From IMG/VR virus record IMGVR_UViG_2541047903_000002: 23,450 nucleotides of DNA; one strand, 5' to 3'. Of the stretch, positions 990-9,974 are shown piece by piece. The notes beneath the pieces are model-generated. The model ran no database searches and had not been told where the DNA came from. It was given only the letters and a program-made list of their open reading frames with translations. A program made the position numbers and the translations under genes. The DNA is from a virus. Its lineage: Duplodnaviria > Heunggongvirae > Uroviricota > Caudoviricetes. The first letter of the stretch is position 1. Each line of letters begins with the position of its first letter.

Positions 990-1059
990 TAGATACACAT
1001 CTTGTCATATGATCAAATGGTTTCGCCAAAAATCAATAATCAGACAACAAAATGTGCGA
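990..1059 (-). ncRNA. IS10 RNA-OUT antisense RNA (position inferred from the known IS10 layout)
   Basis: Established IS10 organisation: pOUT transcript is complementary to the 5' end of the transposase mRNA. Placement relative to the tnp ATG at 1052 is inferred, not read as a defined transcript. Confidence 0.4.
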
Positions 1060-2260
1060 ACTCGATATTTTACACGACTCTCTTTACCAATTCTGCCCCG
1101 AATTACACTTAAAACGACTCAACAGCTTAACGTTGGCTTGCCACGCCTTACTTGACTGTAAAACTCTCACTCTTACCGAACTTGGCCGTAACCTGCCAAC
1201 CAAAGCGAGAACAAAACATAACATCAAACGAATCGACCGATTGTTAGGTAATCGTCACCTCCACAAAGAGCGACTCGCTGTATACCGTTGGCATGCTAGC
1301 TTTATCTGTTCGGGCAATACGATGCCCATTGTACTTGTTGACTGGTCTGATATCCGTGAGCAAAAACGGCTTATGGTATTGCGAGCTTCAGTCGCACTAC
1401 ACGGTCGTTCTGTTACTCTTTATGAGAAAGCGTTCCCGCTTTCAGAGCAATGTTCAAAGAAAGCTCATGACCAATTTCTAGCCGACCTTGCGAGCATTCT
1501 ACCGAGTAACACCACACCGCTCATTGTCAGTGATGCTGGCTTTAAAGTGCCATGGTATAAATCCGTTGAGAAGCTGGGTTGGTACTGGTTAAGTCGAGTA
1601 AGAGGAAAAGTACAATATGCAGACCTAGGAGCGGAAAACTGGAAACCTATCAGCAACTTACATGATATGTCATCTAGTCACTCAAAGACTTTAGGCTATA
1701 AGAGGCTGACTAAAAGCAATCCAATCTCATGCCAAATTCTATTGTATAAATCTCGCTCTAAAGGCCGAAAAAATCAGCGCTCGACACGGACTCATTGTCA
1801 CCACCCGTCACCTAAAATCTACTCAGCGTCGGCAAAGGAGCCATGGATTCTAGCAACTAACTTACCTGTTGAAATTCGAACACCCAAACAACTTGTTAAT
1901 ATCTATTCGAAGCGAATGCAGATTGAAGAAACCTTCCGAGACTTGAAAAGTCCTGCCTACGGACTAGGCCTACGCCATAGCCGAACGAGCAGCTCAGAGC
2001 GTTTTGATATCATGCTGCTAATCGCCCTGATGCTTCAACTAACATGTTGGCTTGCGGGCGTTCATGCTCAGAAACAAGGTTGGGACAAGCACTTCCAGGC
2101 TAACACAGTCAGAAATCGAAACGTACTCTCAACAGTTCGCTTAGGCATGGAAGTTTTGCGGCATTCTGGCTACACAATAACAAGGGAAGACTCACTCGTG
2201 GCTGCAACCCTGCTTACTCAAAATCTATTCACACATGGTTACGTTTTGGGGAAATTATGA
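1052..2260 (+). CDS. IS10 transposase
   Basis: 402-aa ORF MCELDILHDSLYQFCPELHLKRLNSLTLACHALLDCKTLTLTELGRNLPTKARTKHNIKRIDRLLGNRHLH... matches the IS10/Tn10 transposase as I recall it. Confidence 0.9.
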   Translation: MCELDILHDSLYQFCPELHLKRLNSLTLACHALLDCKTLTLTELGRNLPTKARTKHNIKRIDRLLGNRHLHKERLAVYRWHASFICSGNTMPIVLVDWSDIREQKRLMVLRASVALHGRSVTLYEKAFPLSEQCSKKAHDQFLADLASILPSNTTPLIVSDAGFKVPWYKSVEKLGWYWLSRVRGKVQYADLGAENWKPISNLHDMSSSHSKTLGYKRLTKSNPISCQILLYKSRSKGRKNQRSTRTHCHHPSPKIYSASAKEPWILATNLPVEIRTPKQLVNIYSKRMQIEETFRDLKSPAYGLGLRHSRTSSSERFDIMLLIALMLQLTCWLAGVHAQKQGWDKHFQANTVRNRNVLSTVRLGMEVLRHSGYTITREDSLVAATLLTQNLFTHGYVLGKL

Positions 2261-4508: not shown

Positions 4509-5656
<1,148 letters not shown>

Positions 5657-5864
5657 TATGGCACCTGTGTTGTTCTGAGGTGAGCATATCACCTCTGTTC
5701 AGGTGGCCAAATTCAGTAAACCACTTCACTTAAATAGTGGATTGCGGTAGTAAAGATTGTGCCTGTCTTTTAACCACATCAGGCTCGGTGGTTCTCGTGT
5801 ACCCCTACAACGAGAAATCGGATAAACTCTATTCACCCCTACAGAGAGCAAAAGAGAAACGCCG

Positions 5865-6446
5865 ATGAACAACTCATGGTGGCAGGAACTAATGCATTTT
5901 TTCCTGCAAGGAATGACACTTAAACAGTTGATTCATATGCTAATCATCCTGATCATATTGATTATTGTTATGCCGGTAAGCGTAAAAGAATGGATAAACC
6001 TGCATAGTCCAGAAATCCTTCCTCATTACTGGATGTATTACATCCTGTTGTTTTGCGTTAGCTATGTGCTTAACGGCGTTGTTAATTCCGCTTATCACGC
6101 TGTGACTGAAAGAATTGAGGTATTCGCTGCTCAGAAGCGCAAATCTAAAGAAGAAAAATATGTGCAAGATTTGTTTGATTCGTTAACTCTTGGAGAAAGA
6201 GCGTATTTGGCATTCGCTGTAGCCGCTAATAACCAGCTACAAACGGAAAAGGGCGCTCATGAATCAATTTCATTGCTCAAAAAAGGACTCCTCGTTCGAA
6301 GGCCTCCTGCTGTTGGATATCCTGATACCGACCGTTTCGTTATCCCTGAAAGCTATAGACATGAGTGCTACATTAGGTTTGCCGGGAAGGCAGACAGCCT
6401 TATGGATGAACTTATCGCTCAGGATAAGCATGGCAAAAACAAGTAA
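5865..6446 (+). CDS. sieB: Putative superinfection-exclusion protein (SieB-like), membrane protein
   Basis: 193 aa with a hydrophobic N-terminal region (LIHMLIILIILIIVMPV, YILLFCVSYVLNGVV); divergent from and adjacent to N, in an AT-rich segment. Call is by position and composition. Confidence 0.5.
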   Translation: MNNSWWQELMHFFLQGMTLKQLIHMLIILIILIIVMPVSVKEWINLHSPEILPHYWMYYILLFCVSYVLNGVVNSAYHAVTERIEVFAAQKRKSKEEKYVQDLFDSLTLGERAYLAFAVAANNQLQTEKGAHESISLLKKGLLVRRPPAVGYPDTDRFVIPESYRHECYIRFAGKADSLMDELIAQDKHGKNK

Positions 6447-6462
6447 TTAGCAAATGAATTTA

Positions 6463-6735
6463 TCATCTCGCCGTCAGTTGTTTTGATTTCCGGTAGCCTG
6501 CCGCGTAAAGAGCTACGTTCGGAAGACAAGTTGAACCTTCATATTTTCTGGTCAACGTTGTCAGAGTTATCACTTCTGCTCTCATTGCTGGTTTGAGCTT
6601 GCATTGCAAGACCACTCGTGAAGGGGTTGGCCTGTGTAGCTTGTCGGAGCTGATCGCCTCCTGACTTTGCAGATTTGCGCGACGAGCTCTACGGCGAGAA
6701 GCTGCGGTGCCTTTAAATTCTGTTTTTCTGGACAT
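6463..6735 (-). CDS. N: N-type transcription antiterminator
   Basis: Arginine-rich motif GTAASRRRARRANLQ near the N-terminus; C-terminus VALYAAGYRKSKQLTAR resembles P22 gp24; GGGAGG Shine-Dalgarno before the ATG at 6735. Confidence 0.8.
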   Translation of the reverse strand: MSRKTEFKGTAASRRRARRANLQSQEAISSDKLHRPTPSRVVLQCKLKPAMRAEVITLTTLTRKYEGSTCLPNVALYAAGYRKSKQLTAR

Positions 6736-6834
6736 GGATTCCTCCCGAATAAACTTTGGCGATGCAATCTCGAAGCTCCTCCTGAGACGGTTGCTTCGGC
6801 ATTGCATCCCACAGCTTATGTGGTTGGGTGATCT

Positions 6835-6878
6835 GGCTTTTCAGCCACGTAGTCGAGAGTCGACGTTGTTTAAAGAGC
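6835..6878 (-). promoter_or_regulatory. nutL: boxA-like GCTCTTTAA plus boxB hairpin GGCUGAAAAGCC
   Basis: Read on the minus strand between pL and N; same boxA - about 23 nt - boxB layout as the site after cro. Confidence 0.6.
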
Positions 6879-6924
6879 CTGCCAGTCTGTTCCATTTGGC
6901 TTCCAGCGTCCTGCTGACGGTTAA

Positions 6925-6953
6925 ATAGTACGATATGTACTTTACAAGATCAA
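6925..6953 (-). promoter_or_regulatory. Candidate pL (-35 TTGATC, 17-bp spacer, -10 TACTAT) with an overlapping palindromic operator AGTACGATATGTACT
   Basis: Hexamers and palindrome read directly on the minus strand upstream of nutL. Confidence 0.5.
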
Positions 6954-7140
6954 TACAATTTGTTGTAAGTTGGCGTGGTTTTTTATAACGCTTTGTATTT
7001 AATAGTGTTGTTTTTTAGCGTGGATGTATTGCCTCGGCGATGTAAGGAGAGATCAGAATTGCGTGGTTTAGTGGGTTGCATCTATTTATTTTTCAATAAA
7101 TATAATTGGTTATGTGTTTTTAGGTGGGCGAACGTGAGGC

Positions 7141-7166
7141 AAAGAAAACCCGGCGCTGAGGCCGGG
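7141..7166 (-). terminator. Intrinsic terminator ending the cI-linked operon
   Basis: Minus-strand hairpin CCCGGC-CTCAGC-GCCGGG followed by TTTTCTTT, directly after the 250-aa gene. Confidence 0.6.
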
Positions 7167-7171
7167 TTGTA

Positions 7172-7924
7172 TTATGCTGCAAGTCTCTTAACCCAAGTCT
7201 CTCTTTTGGAGAATGGTAGAACTTGGCTTGATTCATGGAAGAGTAAGGAGAGTTGTTGCATTTGATCACCAATTGCTTCGCTGTCTATAACAACAAATCT
7301 GTTGTTATACTCCTCACTTGAAGCTTTAAGATCAATTAGTTTCCCAAGCAATGAGTAAGCACTATTCCAGCTTCCTCCGTGTTTCACGCTTGATGTAAAA
7401 ACGTATTTAGGTATGTCGGTTTTTATTGTTACAGGGACGGTAATTTGATGTCCACTCAAGCCATATACGTTTTCACGAAGAGAAAGTGCGTCTCTAAGCT
7501 CTGTGTGATATAGATAATCAATAACCATACTTTCAAACTTTTCAGCTTGAACTGGCTGATACCAGTCTAACGACAAAGTTGATGCGAGTATACCAGCTCT
7601 AATTATGTTCGATGTAATCGCACCGACATCCTTTTCTGTTGCCCAAGCAATGATTTCTCCTCGAGCATTGAGTTCTGCGCCTTCTTTAAGCAGTAATTGT
7701 CGTATCTCATCAAGTCGTTTTTTGGTAAGCGAGATCCCTCTTGCCTCCATATTCATTAAGGCATCGCATCTGTCACTAACTAAATACCTACCATTGACTT
7801 CACGGATAAAGGCACCGACATGCTCTCCATCATCACAGTAAGTGAATGGACTGATAATTCTCAAGGTCTTGCCTATTGGATGGCATTCGAAACCTAGTTG
7901 TGAGATCACTGTTGAGCACATCAT
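7172..7924 (-). CDS. Hypothetical protein, second gene of the cI-linked cassette
   Basis: 250-aa ORF; start ATG overlaps the stop of the upstream gene (ATGA); AT-rich; no family recognised. Confidence 0.7.
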   Translation of the reverse strand: MMCSTVISQLGFECHPIGKTLRIISPFTYCDDGEHVGAFIREVNGRYLVSDRCDALMNMEARGISLTKKRLDEIRQLLLKEGAELNARGEIIAWATEKDVGAITSNIIRAGILASTLSLDWYQPVQAEKFESMVIDYLYHTELRDALSLRENVYGLSGHQITVPVTIKTDIPKYVFTSSVKHGGSWNSAYSLLGKLIDLKASSEEYNNRFVVIDSEAIGDQMQQLSLLFHESSQVLPFSKRETWVKRLAA

Positions 7925-8478
7925 ATTCCAAACCCCATTTGCCCCGACTCATCTTCAAGCGGTAAAGGTATTCTCCCAGAGTAAGTTATGTTCAGATGTT
8001 TACAGAAGTAATTCCAATACCCTACCAGGTCATCTGGGTTTATGTCATCTTCGATTGGAAACGCTATTCTATCACTATAGTATCCAGCTTCTTCATAGTA
8101 TACATGGTAGTGAGCACCGTAAATGATATCTTGGTACTTCGGATGATCGACCTTGTAACTATTCGTGTGTTTGTCAAAGTGATAGGTATCTACCGCGAAA
8201 ACCCTCTTGTTATGATAGAAAGCAATAATATTTATTTTAGGGTAAGAAATCGGGTCATCAGGTTCTGAATCCTGATCTGGTTTCCATTTCAGTTCAAACT
8301 TTAGCCCTTGTATAGGTATACAATCCTCATCCAAGGGGATGATATGGGCTTGTAGCCACATATCAGAGCGACTTGGTTTCTGTTTCCATTTAACGCCAGA
8401 AAAGTTAACTATTTTTTTACAATAAAGTACTTTATCAACTTCTACTTGGCTTGGCTGATAATCATCTATTTTTGCCAA
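7921..8478 (-). CDS. Hypothetical protein, first gene of the cI-linked cassette
   Basis: 185-aa ORF starting 39 nt after the cI stop (track start is TTG; true start uncertain); acidic, Tyr/His-rich C-terminal half; AT-rich. Confidence 0.65.
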   Translation of the reverse strand: MAKIDDYQPSQVEVDKVLYCKKIVNFSGVKWKQKPSRSDMWLQAHIIPLDEDCIPIQGLKFELKWKPDQDSEPDDPISYPKINIIAFYHNKRVFAVDTYHFDKHTNSYKVDHPKYQDIIYGAHYHVYYEEAGYYSDRIAFPIEDDINPDDLVGYWNYFCKHLNITYSGRIPLPLEDESGQMGFGI

Positions 8479-8517: not shown

Positions 8518-9177
8518 TCACCCAAACGTCTCTTCAGGCCATTGGCTGGCGATAACTTTCCCCACAACGGAACAACTCTCATTGCATGGGATCATTGGGT
8601 ATTGTGGGTTTAGTGGCTGTAGAAACACCTGACCGCTATCCCTGATCAGTTTCTTGAAGGTAAATTCATCACCACCAAGTCTGGCTATGCAGAAATCGCC
8701 GGGCTCAACAGCTTGCTCAGGGTCAACCAGAATTAACATCCCGTCAGGAAAGCTGGGTTTGGAACCTGTTGGTGCGGTCATTGAGTTACCTTCAACCTCA
8801 AGCCAGAATGCAGAGTCACTGGCTTTTTTGGTTGTGCTTACCAATCTCTCCGCATCGCCTTTGGTAAAGGTTCTGAGTTCTGGAGAGAACATCCCAGCCT
8901 GAACATGAGAAAAAACAGGGTACTCATATTGTTTTTTAACTGGGGCCGATGAGTATTCGCCAACAGGTGAAAATGTCCCGTCGTGGTTGAATGATATGTT
9001 ATCAATACCAAGGTATTTAAACACCACACCAATATCACTAAGAGATGGATGACGAGATCCGCGCAACCAGTGTCCAATCCCACCCTGCGTCATACCTAGC
9101 TCTTCGGCTAACTTCTCTTGAGTTATGCCGAGCTCTTTCATTCTGGATCTAGCCAGTTCATACCATTTCATTTTCAT
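8518..9177 (-). CDS. cI: CI-type prophage repressor with a lambda-type C-terminal domain
   Basis: C-terminal about 135 aa ([21 protein letters not shown]...QWPEETFG) match lambda CI; N-terminal HTH domain is different. Start at M-K-M-K-W-Y (9177 or 9171). Confidence 0.85.
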
Positions 9178-9288
9178 GTCCTTATTATTACGCTCTGTAC
9201 TGGAACCATCCATGCACAATGTGTATTTTTACTTGTATTCGCAAAGTACATATTGTATTTTTTTATTCGTGTTTACTATGGAGGGCAT
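9178..9288. promoter_or_regulatory. Right operator/promoter region between cI and cro (pRM/pR), with imperfect palindromes
   Basis: AAGTACATATTGTAT resembles the palindrome at pL; CACAATGTG and a GGAGGG Shine-Dalgarno before cro also present. Confidence 0.55.
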
Positions 9289-9504
9289 ATGAGCAACCTA
9301 CGAAAATATCGAGAGTCACTGAATATCTCTCAAACAACACTTGCTAAGGCAGTTGGATGCACACAGGGAGCTATCGGACATTGGGAATCTGGTCGTCGCT
9401 TCCCAGACCTTAAAACATGCCGTGCTCTTGTTGCGTGCCTAAACAAGTTAGGCGCAAAAGTCAGTCTTGATGACGTGTTCCCGCCGGAACACAAAGCCGC
9501 TTAA
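9289..9504 (+). CDS. cro: Cro-type HTH repressor
   Basis: 71 aa MSNLRKYRESLNISQTTLAKAVGCTQGAIGHWESG...; the HTH (TQGAIGHW) is close to that of the adjacent repressor (TQGGIGHW). Confidence 0.8.
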   Translation: MSNLRKYRESLNISQTTLAKAVGCTQGAIGHWESGRRFPDLKTCRALVACLNKLGAKVSLDDVFPPEHKAA

Positions 9505-9514
9505 TAAGCGGATC

Positions 9515-9560
9515 CGCTCTTTGTAACAACGGACATTCGTCCTACGTCGCTGAAAAGCGA
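9515..9560 (+). promoter_or_regulatory. nutR: boxA CGCTCTTTG plus boxB hairpin TCGCUGAAAAGCGA
   Basis: Read directly; spacer between boxA and boxB is nearly identical to that of nutL. Confidence 0.6.
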
Positions 9561-9645
9561 GTTCCAAGATATCTGACCAACTAAGGCCATATGCGTTTCC
9601 ACGCATACCTTTCAACTAACTATTCACTATTGGAAATCTTAAGAA

Positions 9646-9942
9646 ATGGAAAGAACAAGTTACAGCAAACTATCACAGCGTGACGTTGATCGCGCAGAAA
9701 CAGATTTACTTATCAATCTGTCAGCTATTACCCAGCGCGGTCTGGCAAAGATGATTGGCTGTCATGAATCGAAGATAAGCAGAACGGACTGGAGATTTAT
9801 TGCTTCGGTCTTGTGTGCTTTCGGAATGGCATCAGACATCAGTCCGATTAGCAGGGCTTTTAAGTATGCGCTTGATGGACTCACCAATAAAAAACGCCCG
9901 GCGGCAACCGAGCGTTCTGAACAAATCCAGATGGAATTCTGA
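9646..9942 (+). CDS. cII: CII transcriptional activator
   Basis: C-terminus TNKKRPAATERSEQIQMEF matches lambda CII. Confidence 0.9.
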   Translation: MERTSYSKLSQRDVDRAETDLLINLSAITQRGLAKMIGCHESKISRTDWRFIASVLCAFGMASDISPISRAFKYALDGLTNKKRPAATERSEQIQMEF

Positions 9943-9963
9943 GGTCATTACTGGATCAATCCA
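9887..9963 (-). ncRNA. oop: oop-like antisense RNA
   Basis: Minus strand matches the lambda oop RNA as I recall it, including the terminator ...CGGUUGCCGCCGGGCGUUUUUUAUU; antisense to the cII 3' end. Confidence 0.55.
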
Positions 9964-9974
9964 CAGGAGTCATT

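Follow-up and report, generated by a model that had tools for sequence, protein, structure and literature searches.

The question raised by this locus is how leftward early transcription is controlled in the interval between the cI repressor gene and N, and whether the arrangement found there is new. A preliminary description, made from the sequence alone, had placed in this interval a promoter pL with a palindromic operator, followed by a boxA-boxB nutL, and had taken these elements to fix the early-left control logic. The window considered here is the whole stretch of DNA that was analysed (23,450 nt; IMG/VR record IMGVR_UViG_2541047903_000002), and each of the strings quoted in that description occurs in it once, where it had been located. 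We conclude that the interval is very probably the region that controls early leftward transcription in a lambda-like prophage of VT2-Sakai type, in which a repressor-controlled pL is followed by nutL upstream of N (Table 1). This arrangement is known already and occurs very widely, and it holds no new biology; the interpretation is supported, with extensions.

Over 801 bp (6400-7200) the window shows 100% identity to coliphages ev207, ev017, PhiR57_1 and PhiR63_2. The stretch from the terminator to N matches VT2-Sakai, the Stx1-converting phage and Stx2 phage II at ~93% identity, as it does many other Stx phages, and identity to VT2-Sakai from OL to nutL (6820-7175) amounts to ~91%. The VT2-Sakai record AP000422, whose annotations are labelled 'putative', carries on its left side a rho-independent terminator of the pRM transcript, three putative OL operators, the major leftward promoter, nutL and N, and on its right side three OR operators, pR, pRM and nutR. 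Since these annotations stand at homologous places, the first reading of the sequence amounts to the rediscovery of an annotated control region. The control logic that it proposed is borne out by them and by the downstream gene, a full-length Pfam N_peptide.

VT2-Sakai (Sp5), the Stx1-converting phage and Stx2 phage II (AP000422, AP005153) resemble the window in having a cI that is 97-100% identical. The VT2-Sakai type further shares the 15-bp core of OL1, of OL3 and of all three OR operators, the 17-bp pL spacer, the -10 hexamer TACTAT and an identical nutL. It differs at the -35 hexamer (TTGATC in the window versus TTGACC), in the left half of OL2 (ACAAC in the window versus AGAAC) and in the genes between cI and the terminator, where the window has two others. 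These overlap (7172-7924 and 7921-8478, minus strand), occupy the position of lambda rexA/rexB and encode a 250-aa DUF1828 protein (PHROG 1960) and a 185-aa protein that matches DUF6978 weakly (PHROG 2017); we regard them as candidate exclusion or defence genes expressed in the lysogen.

The OL-pL-nutL segment was matched in 786 of 5,426 complete E. coli genomes, and in E. coli Nissle 1917 (locus L089) as well as in the E. coli type strain it is identical to that of the window. In the RefSeq annotation of Nissle 1917, N is a 'hypothetical protein', and nothing is annotated under the segment except another 'hypothetical' ORF, which runs across nutL. A paper on a Nissle 'phage repressor (pr)' (PMC5987069) was considered as evidence on cI and set aside, as its primers bracket 9600-9970, within which a cII homologue is located, and not cI.

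Table 1. Elements of the early control regions in the window. Coordinates are those of the window; minus-strand elements are written in the direction of transcription where two dots join the numbers in descending order.
Feature	Position	Strand	Sequence	Basis or remark
pL -35 hexamer	6953..6948	-	TTGATC	Aligns with lambda pL -35 TTGACA
pL spacer	Between -35 and -10	-	17 nt, TTGTAAAGTACATATCG	
pL -10 hexamer	6930..6925	-	TACTAT	Geometry as lambda pL -10 GATACT
Predicted transcription start and conserved leader start	6918..6906	-	G 6918; GTCAGCAGGACGC	Homology to lambda pL
OL1	6927-6941		AGTAC ATATC GTACT; minus AGTACATATCGTACT, plus AGTACGATATGTACT	Perfect palindrome; VT2-Sakai operator; near-invariant in relatives
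OL2	6952-6966		ACAAC AAATT GTATT; minus ACAACAAATTGTATT	2-bp overlap with pL -35; VT2-Sakai homology, conservation
OL3	6985-6999		AATAC AAAGC GTTAT; minus AATACAAAGCGTTAT	Motif match; homologous VT2-Sakai operator; half-sites conserved in 34 variants
OR3	9187-9201		ATTAC GCTCT GTACT; ATTACGCTCTGTACT	Motif match, VT2-Sakai homology, conservation
OR2	9213-9227		TGCAC AATGT GTATT; TGCACAATGTGTATT	VT2-Sakai homology; half-sites conserved, central bases variable
OR1, ahead of cro	9245-9259		AGTAC ATATT GTATT; AGTACATATTGTATT	Motif match, VT2-Sakai homology, conservation
nutL boxA	6878..6870	-	GCUCUUUAA (boxA-like GCTCTTTAA)	Inside VT2-Sakai nutL annotation
nutL spacer hairpin, then UACG	6864..6852	-	GUCGA-CUC-UCGAC	Folds; relatives vary only in the loop
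nutL boxB	6847..6834	-	UGGCU-GAAA-AGCCA; TGGCTGAAAAGCCA	5-bp stem, GAAA tetraloop
Long N-leader hairpin, between nutL and the N ribosome-binding site	6808..6761	-		16-nt arms, 88% complementary
N antitermination gene, 90 aa	6463..6735	-		Pfam N_peptide PF25694, PHROG 271; N-terminal arginine-rich motif MSRKTEFKGTAASRRRARR
Intrinsic terminator at the end of the cI (pRM) operon, immediately preceding the OL region	7147..7168	-		Terminator scan; 8-bp stem, 6 GC pairs, T-run
cI repressor	8518..9177	-		HTH_3 and Peptidase_S24; predicted reader of the operators
cro	9289..9504	+		HTH_3
nutR	9515..9560	+	boxA CGCUCUUUG, hairpin GGAC-AUUC-GUCC, UACG, boxB UCGCU-GAAA-AGCGA	

Both parts of the nutL originally described, a boxA and a hairpin, are present in the leader of N. 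The hairpin had been given as GGCTGAAAAGCC (6846..6835, minus strand), to which one further U-A pair can be added, making it a 5-bp stem that closes a 4-nt GAAA loop, and an additional hairpin occupies the space between boxA and boxB. The corrected layout reads GCUCUUUAA-ACAAC-(GUCGA CUC UCGAC)-UACG-(UGGCU GAAA AGCCA). Its boxA agrees at 8/8 positions with the 8-nt core GCUCUUUA for NusB/NusE (taken from PMC3177189), and the boxB fold has a free energy of -6.3 kcal/mol (z = -2.8). Downstream of cro, nutR repeats the plan as CGCUCUUUGUAACAAC-(GGAC AUUC GUCC)-UACG-(UCGCU GAAA AGCGA), and the pattern boxA...GCTGAAAAGC is found exactly twice in the window, after pL and after cro, versus 0.00 occurrences expected.

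The second pair of the boxB stem is G-C in nutL and C-G in nutR. When five nut sites are compared (nutL and nutR of the window, nutL and nutR of Shigella phage 75/02, and nutL of Salmonella phage epsilon34), 25 of 25 boxB stem cells are paired, two pairs carry compensatory changes, and the loop stays GNRA throughout. Instead of the five-nucleotide GNRNA-type loop of lambda and P22, we find four nucleotides, GAAA in the window and GCAA in phage 75/02 nutL; this is a variant of the nut-site kind and not grounds for exclusion. At gathering thresholds no Rfam family covers the nut sites, the only match in the window being the RNA-OUT of an IS10-like element, and our search of the literature returned nothing on a tetraloop boxB.

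Of the competing explanations, the one that survives best concerns the folding of this RNA. The minimum-free-energy fold of nutL (-14.2 kcal/mol) pairs boxA with the 3' arm of boxB and leaves boxB unformed, so that the boxB hairpin is not the only stable fold, and nutL might work through this boxA/boxB-3'-arm structure as a regulatory switch and not as a simple N-binding hairpin. Neely and Friedman (2000) reportedly put forward alternative NUT RNA structures for H-19B, and the fold obtained here may correspond to that idea. However, nutR folds directly into two separate hairpins, the compensatory changes support the boxB stem, and co-transcriptional folding would form the spacer hairpin and boxB locally. 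We regard a switch as unlikely, and retain the N-binding boxB hairpin as the preferred reading of nutL, with which the alternative fold could coexist as a modulating feature.

The gene served by nutL matches PF25694 along its entire length (residues 1-90; 1.5e-32, 112.5 bits against a cut-off of 27.9) and is 98.9% identical to VT2-Sakai N, and a search against solved structures gave no match to it, including none to the lambda N structures. Its ATG at 6735 is preceded by the ribosome-binding site GGGAGGAA, and the distance from boxB to the ATG, which had been put at about 100 nt, measures 98 nt. The N leader folds with z = -3.8. The arms of its long hairpin are kept in phage 75/02 but for one A-to-G change that retains a G-U pair, with differences falling mostly in the loop. 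The lambda N leader contains an RNase III-sensitive structure, to which this hairpin may correspond.

An experimental reference is provided by nut sites of the H-19B/933W type, which show the same succession of boxA, ACAA(C/T), spacer hairpin, UACG and boxB. Between the nutR regions of the window and of H-19B, identity is ~90%, and the spacer hairpin and the boxB stem are the same; in both, a spacer hairpin lies where nutL has one, with a sequence unlike that of nutL. H-19B nutR, which has been described with two hairpins (PMC3526286), gave N-dependent antitermination in experiments (PMC3526286, PMC4499122). The N proteins are 42% identical and share both ends, the window N being without ~37 central residues, and their arginine-rich motifs read SRSRRRERLKAKAL in H-19B versus AASRRRARRANLQ in the window, a difference in step with that of the boxB loops. 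The boxB loop of H-19B is GACAA (5 nt) and that of the window GAAA (4 nt), one base fewer, and the H-19B boxA is degenerate, whereas that of the window fits the core.

The promoter call (TTGATC, 17-bp spacer, TACTAT) holds by virtue of homology to lambda pL and of position, and not through the quality of its hexamers. These agree with the consensus at 8 of 12 positions, a score equalled by 110 sites in the window and thus not significant alone, and pL falls below the threshold of the consensus promoter scan, which did not list it. We retained the call only because it is collinear with lambda pL and conserved. From the -35 through the 17-bp spacer and the -10 to the next six bases, the two promoters can be aligned collinearly, and the leader start GTCAGCAGGACGC is identical at 12 of 13 positions to ATCAGCAGGACGC of lambda, at an equal distance from the -10. 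As the lambda pL transcript starts at the A of ATCAGCAGGACGC, the start in the window is predicted at 6918. All 34 variants have the -10 TACTAT, and 32 of them retain TTGA in the -35, which is TTGACC or TTGACT in most relatives.

It could be argued that N is mainly transcribed from elsewhere, by read-through from the cI operon or from another promoter, and that TTGATC/TACTAT is not a functional pL at all, which would agree with the modest hexamers, the silence of the scan and the number of equally good sites. Yet the cI operon is separated from the pL region by a strong intrinsic terminator, predicted to insulate the one from the other, whose VT2-Sakai homologue is annotated 'rho independent terminator for pRM transcript'. 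Together with the conservation of both hexamers and the collinearity of spacing and leader with lambda pL and its start site, this makes transcription of N from elsewhere highly improbable, and a functional pL at this place remains our reading. Between the terminator and OL3 lies an AT-rich perfect inverted repeat, ATTTAT-TGAAAA-ATAAAT (7084-7101, minus strand), in a stretch that is also conserved in H-19B, whose immunity region differs; the repeat could be a candidate site for a host architectural protein.

The palindrome first noticed over the pL spacer and -10 is present at 6941-6927, where it extends over the spacer and positions 1-4 of the -10 hexamer, but it does not stand alone: it is OL1, one of three OL operators. 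A motif of the same type had also been reported in OR ahead of cro, and is found there as AAGTACATATTGTAT (9244-9258, plus strand). The consensus offered at that stage, AGTACnnnnnGTAyT, was close and essentially right, and the six operators, three in OL and three in OR, give the form ARTACR-N3-YGTAYT. Counted directly over their 12 half-sites, A4 and C5 are present in 12/12 and A1 in 11/12, and position 6 is always a purine. A count of the motif across the window, as the preliminary description had suggested for the immunity region, yielded 15 occurrences of ANNACNNNNNGTNNT versus 5.1 expected, a number reached by 0 of 100 shuffles; 5 of the 15 fall inside two operator zones of ~75 bp (Poisson P ~9e-9). 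Two overlapping loose matches to the operator pattern, ATTACTGGATGTATT and ATTACATCCTGTTGT, lie inside sieB (6025-6051, plus strand); they are probably due to chance and were not counted as operators.

Conservation was assessed from an IMG/VR scan with cI, which found 464 relatives, of which 80 with a protein identity of 97-100% were retained, providing 34 distinct OL and 32 distinct OR sequences. Mean column entropy is 0.08 bits in the half-sites, 0.23-0.32 in the operator centres and 0.43-0.66 in the other inter-operator columns (half-site versus other columns, Mann-Whitney P = 8e-8), a pattern that is the footprint one would expect of a dimeric helix-turn-helix repressor. It is scarcely credible that the palindrome arose by chance or is bound by some other protein, with repression of the N operon acting elsewhere. 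Chance alone would yield a 5+5 inverted repeat with a gap of 5 bp roughly once in every kilobase, and binding of the cognate repressor to it is a prediction, but six like sites stand exactly at lambda-type operator places, near pL as well as pR/pRM, with conserved half-sites and with centres and spacers that vary, and the operators remain linked to this cI gene in loci whose N module is of lambda or P22 type.

Centre-to-centre spacing of the operators is 25 bp for OL1-OL2, 33 bp for OL2-OL3, 26 bp for OR3-OR2 and 32 bp for OR2-OR1, so that OL1-OL2, the close pair in OL, is not the counterpart of OR2-OR3, the close pair in OR. A fourth operator in the gaps of 32-33 bp (OL2-OL3 and OR2-OR1) was considered and rejected: the GTATT at 9235-9239 is without a left half-site and becomes GCATT or GTGTT in relatives. 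We read it as a putative part of the pR -35, the hexamers of pR being ambiguous between TTGTAT/TATTTT (the VT2-Sakai annotation) and TTTACT/TATTGT. Our literature search found no report of the cognate repressor on Sakai-type operators, the gel shifts that it found being those of lambda cI only, which binds the VT2-Sakai operators weakly, at ~4-6 micromolar (PMC10742460). The same paper refers to Fattah et al. for cross-immunity.

The position of the predicted repressor genes, with cI encoded between OL and OR and cro beside OR, is as expected of a lambda-type pL/OL system. The N-terminal domain of cI is 35% identical to Cro and shares with it the recognition-helix motif TQG(G/A)IGHW, in keeping with recognition of the same sites by both. 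Over residues 84-219, which comprise the hinge and the C-terminal domain, cI is almost identical to lambda cI, whereas the N-terminal DNA-binding domain differs and is unrelated to that of lambda, as is the operator sequence; cI is a natural chimera. Given the lambda-like C-terminal domain, RecA-stimulated cleavage and lambda-style cooperativity would be expected. A pRM promoter is predicted at 9177-9212 (minus strand), from sequence and the VT2-Sakai annotation only, with a -35 TGGATG abutting OR2, a 17-bp spacer and a -10 AATAAT. Its predicted start on the A of the cI ATG (9177) would yield a leaderless cI mRNA as in lambda, with OR2 centred near -43.

The region resembles lambda in having three operators, of which OL1 lies across the spacer and -10 and OL2 meets the -35, in the start of its leader, and in the order of boxA and boxB upstream of N. 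Unlike lambda, it has an extra hairpin between boxA and boxB, a GAAA boxB loop where lambda has GAAGA/GAAAA, and an N that belongs to another sequence family. The OL spacings of 24 and 20 bp in lambda (annotated coordinates) also differ from those of the window, and a second unusual point, beside the boxB loop, is that a repressor which carries the lambda C-terminal domain would act here on sites 25 and 33 bp apart.

Exchange of modules among relatives shows which element goes with which protein. Of 74 loci that carry this OL1, 63 have nutL and nutR of Sakai type, nine of lambda type and two of P22 type, with none discordant. The N motif could be read in 67 of the 74 and always agreed with the type of the nut sites: the nine lambda-type loci have lambda nutL, nutR and N, the two P22-type loci have P22 nutL and nutR with a P22-type N, and Sakai N was confirmed in 56 of 63 and unreadable in seven. 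One cI/OL/OR module is accordingly found joined to N and nut modules of lambda, P22 or Sakai type (loci L070, L074-L083). Immunity and N modules are joined at 6906-6918, where the conserved leader start (A/G)TCAGCAGGACGC has the appearance of a recombination linker. The reverse combination is seen in Shigella phage 75/02, whose immunity region is unrelated and whose N is 84% identical, homology to the window beginning at boxA; its nutL boxB is UGGCU GCAA AGCCA. In Salmonella phage epsilon34, N has an arginine-rich motif of the same type (AAGRRRERRAALQ) and boxB is CGGCU GAAA AGCCG. Swaps in which OL1 is kept, and a phage that shares only the N module, indicate that operators go with the repressor and nut sites with N, which is exactly what a repressor-controlled pL followed by an N-responsive nutL requires.

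From the sequence elements and their statistics, homology to annotated or experimentally used relatives, conservation footprints, boxB covariation and the co-inheritance of N, nutL and nutR, we infer how repressor, N and Nus factors may act at this locus. In the lysogen, cI dimers on the three OL operators ARTACR-N3-YGTAYT would block RNA polymerase at pL, with OL1 covering the spacer and -10, OL2 touching the -35 and OL3 lying 33 bp further upstream, and the three matching OR sites would control pR and pRM likewise. After loss of the repressor, transcription would begin at ~6918 and produce an RNA carrying nutL, with boxA GCUCUUUAA, the spacer hairpin, UACG and the GAAA-tetraloop boxB. The arginine-rich N-terminus of N would bind boxB, NusB and NusE (S10) would bind boxA, and together with NusA and NusG they would render RNA polymerase resistant to terminators. 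After cro, nutR may play the same role for the rightward operon.

Other genes and insertions are found in the early-left arm. A SieB superinfection-exclusion gene (5865-6446, plus strand; Pfam SieB 9e-22, PHROG 1301) is convergent with N. An IS3-family element, which resembles IS911, occupies 4509-5692 on the minus strand (orfA 5354-5692, orfB 4509-5327), and an IS10-like element is marked by the Rfam RNA-OUT at 990-1059 (minus strand, 97 bits) and an adjoining 402-aa ORF at 1052-2260 (plus strand). With two insertion sequences in this arm, it is probable that the pL operon is interrupted downstream of N.

For the prophage itself, the regulatory map is fixed by these results: three OL and three OR operators, a pL start near 6918, nutL, nutR and N, and the practical value of this lies in better annotation. 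The only mildly unusual feature is the boxB, a true GNRA tetraloop (GAAA/GCAA) in place of the pentaloop of lambda, P22 and H-19B. Its pairing with a Sakai-type N is seen in phages of E. coli, Shigella and Salmonella, namely the window, VT2-Sakai, 75/02 and epsilon34. It is conceivable, though we hold it only tentatively and with the balance somewhat against it, that Sakai-type N and boxB form a distinct recognition class, in which the motif (A/G)RRR(A/E)(R/H)RA.LQ reads a 4-nt GNRA tetraloop (GAAA/GCAA). The extra base of the lambda boxB pentaloop is flipped out and contributes to NusA engagement. The tetraloop is without this base, and if that role holds, dependence on host factors could differ in phages that carry it. 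The tetraloop boxB of Sakai-type N is the only point that might reward work, and the relatives assembled here offer a natural series for N-boxB specificity, in which one stem is combined with a tetraloop or a pentaloop.
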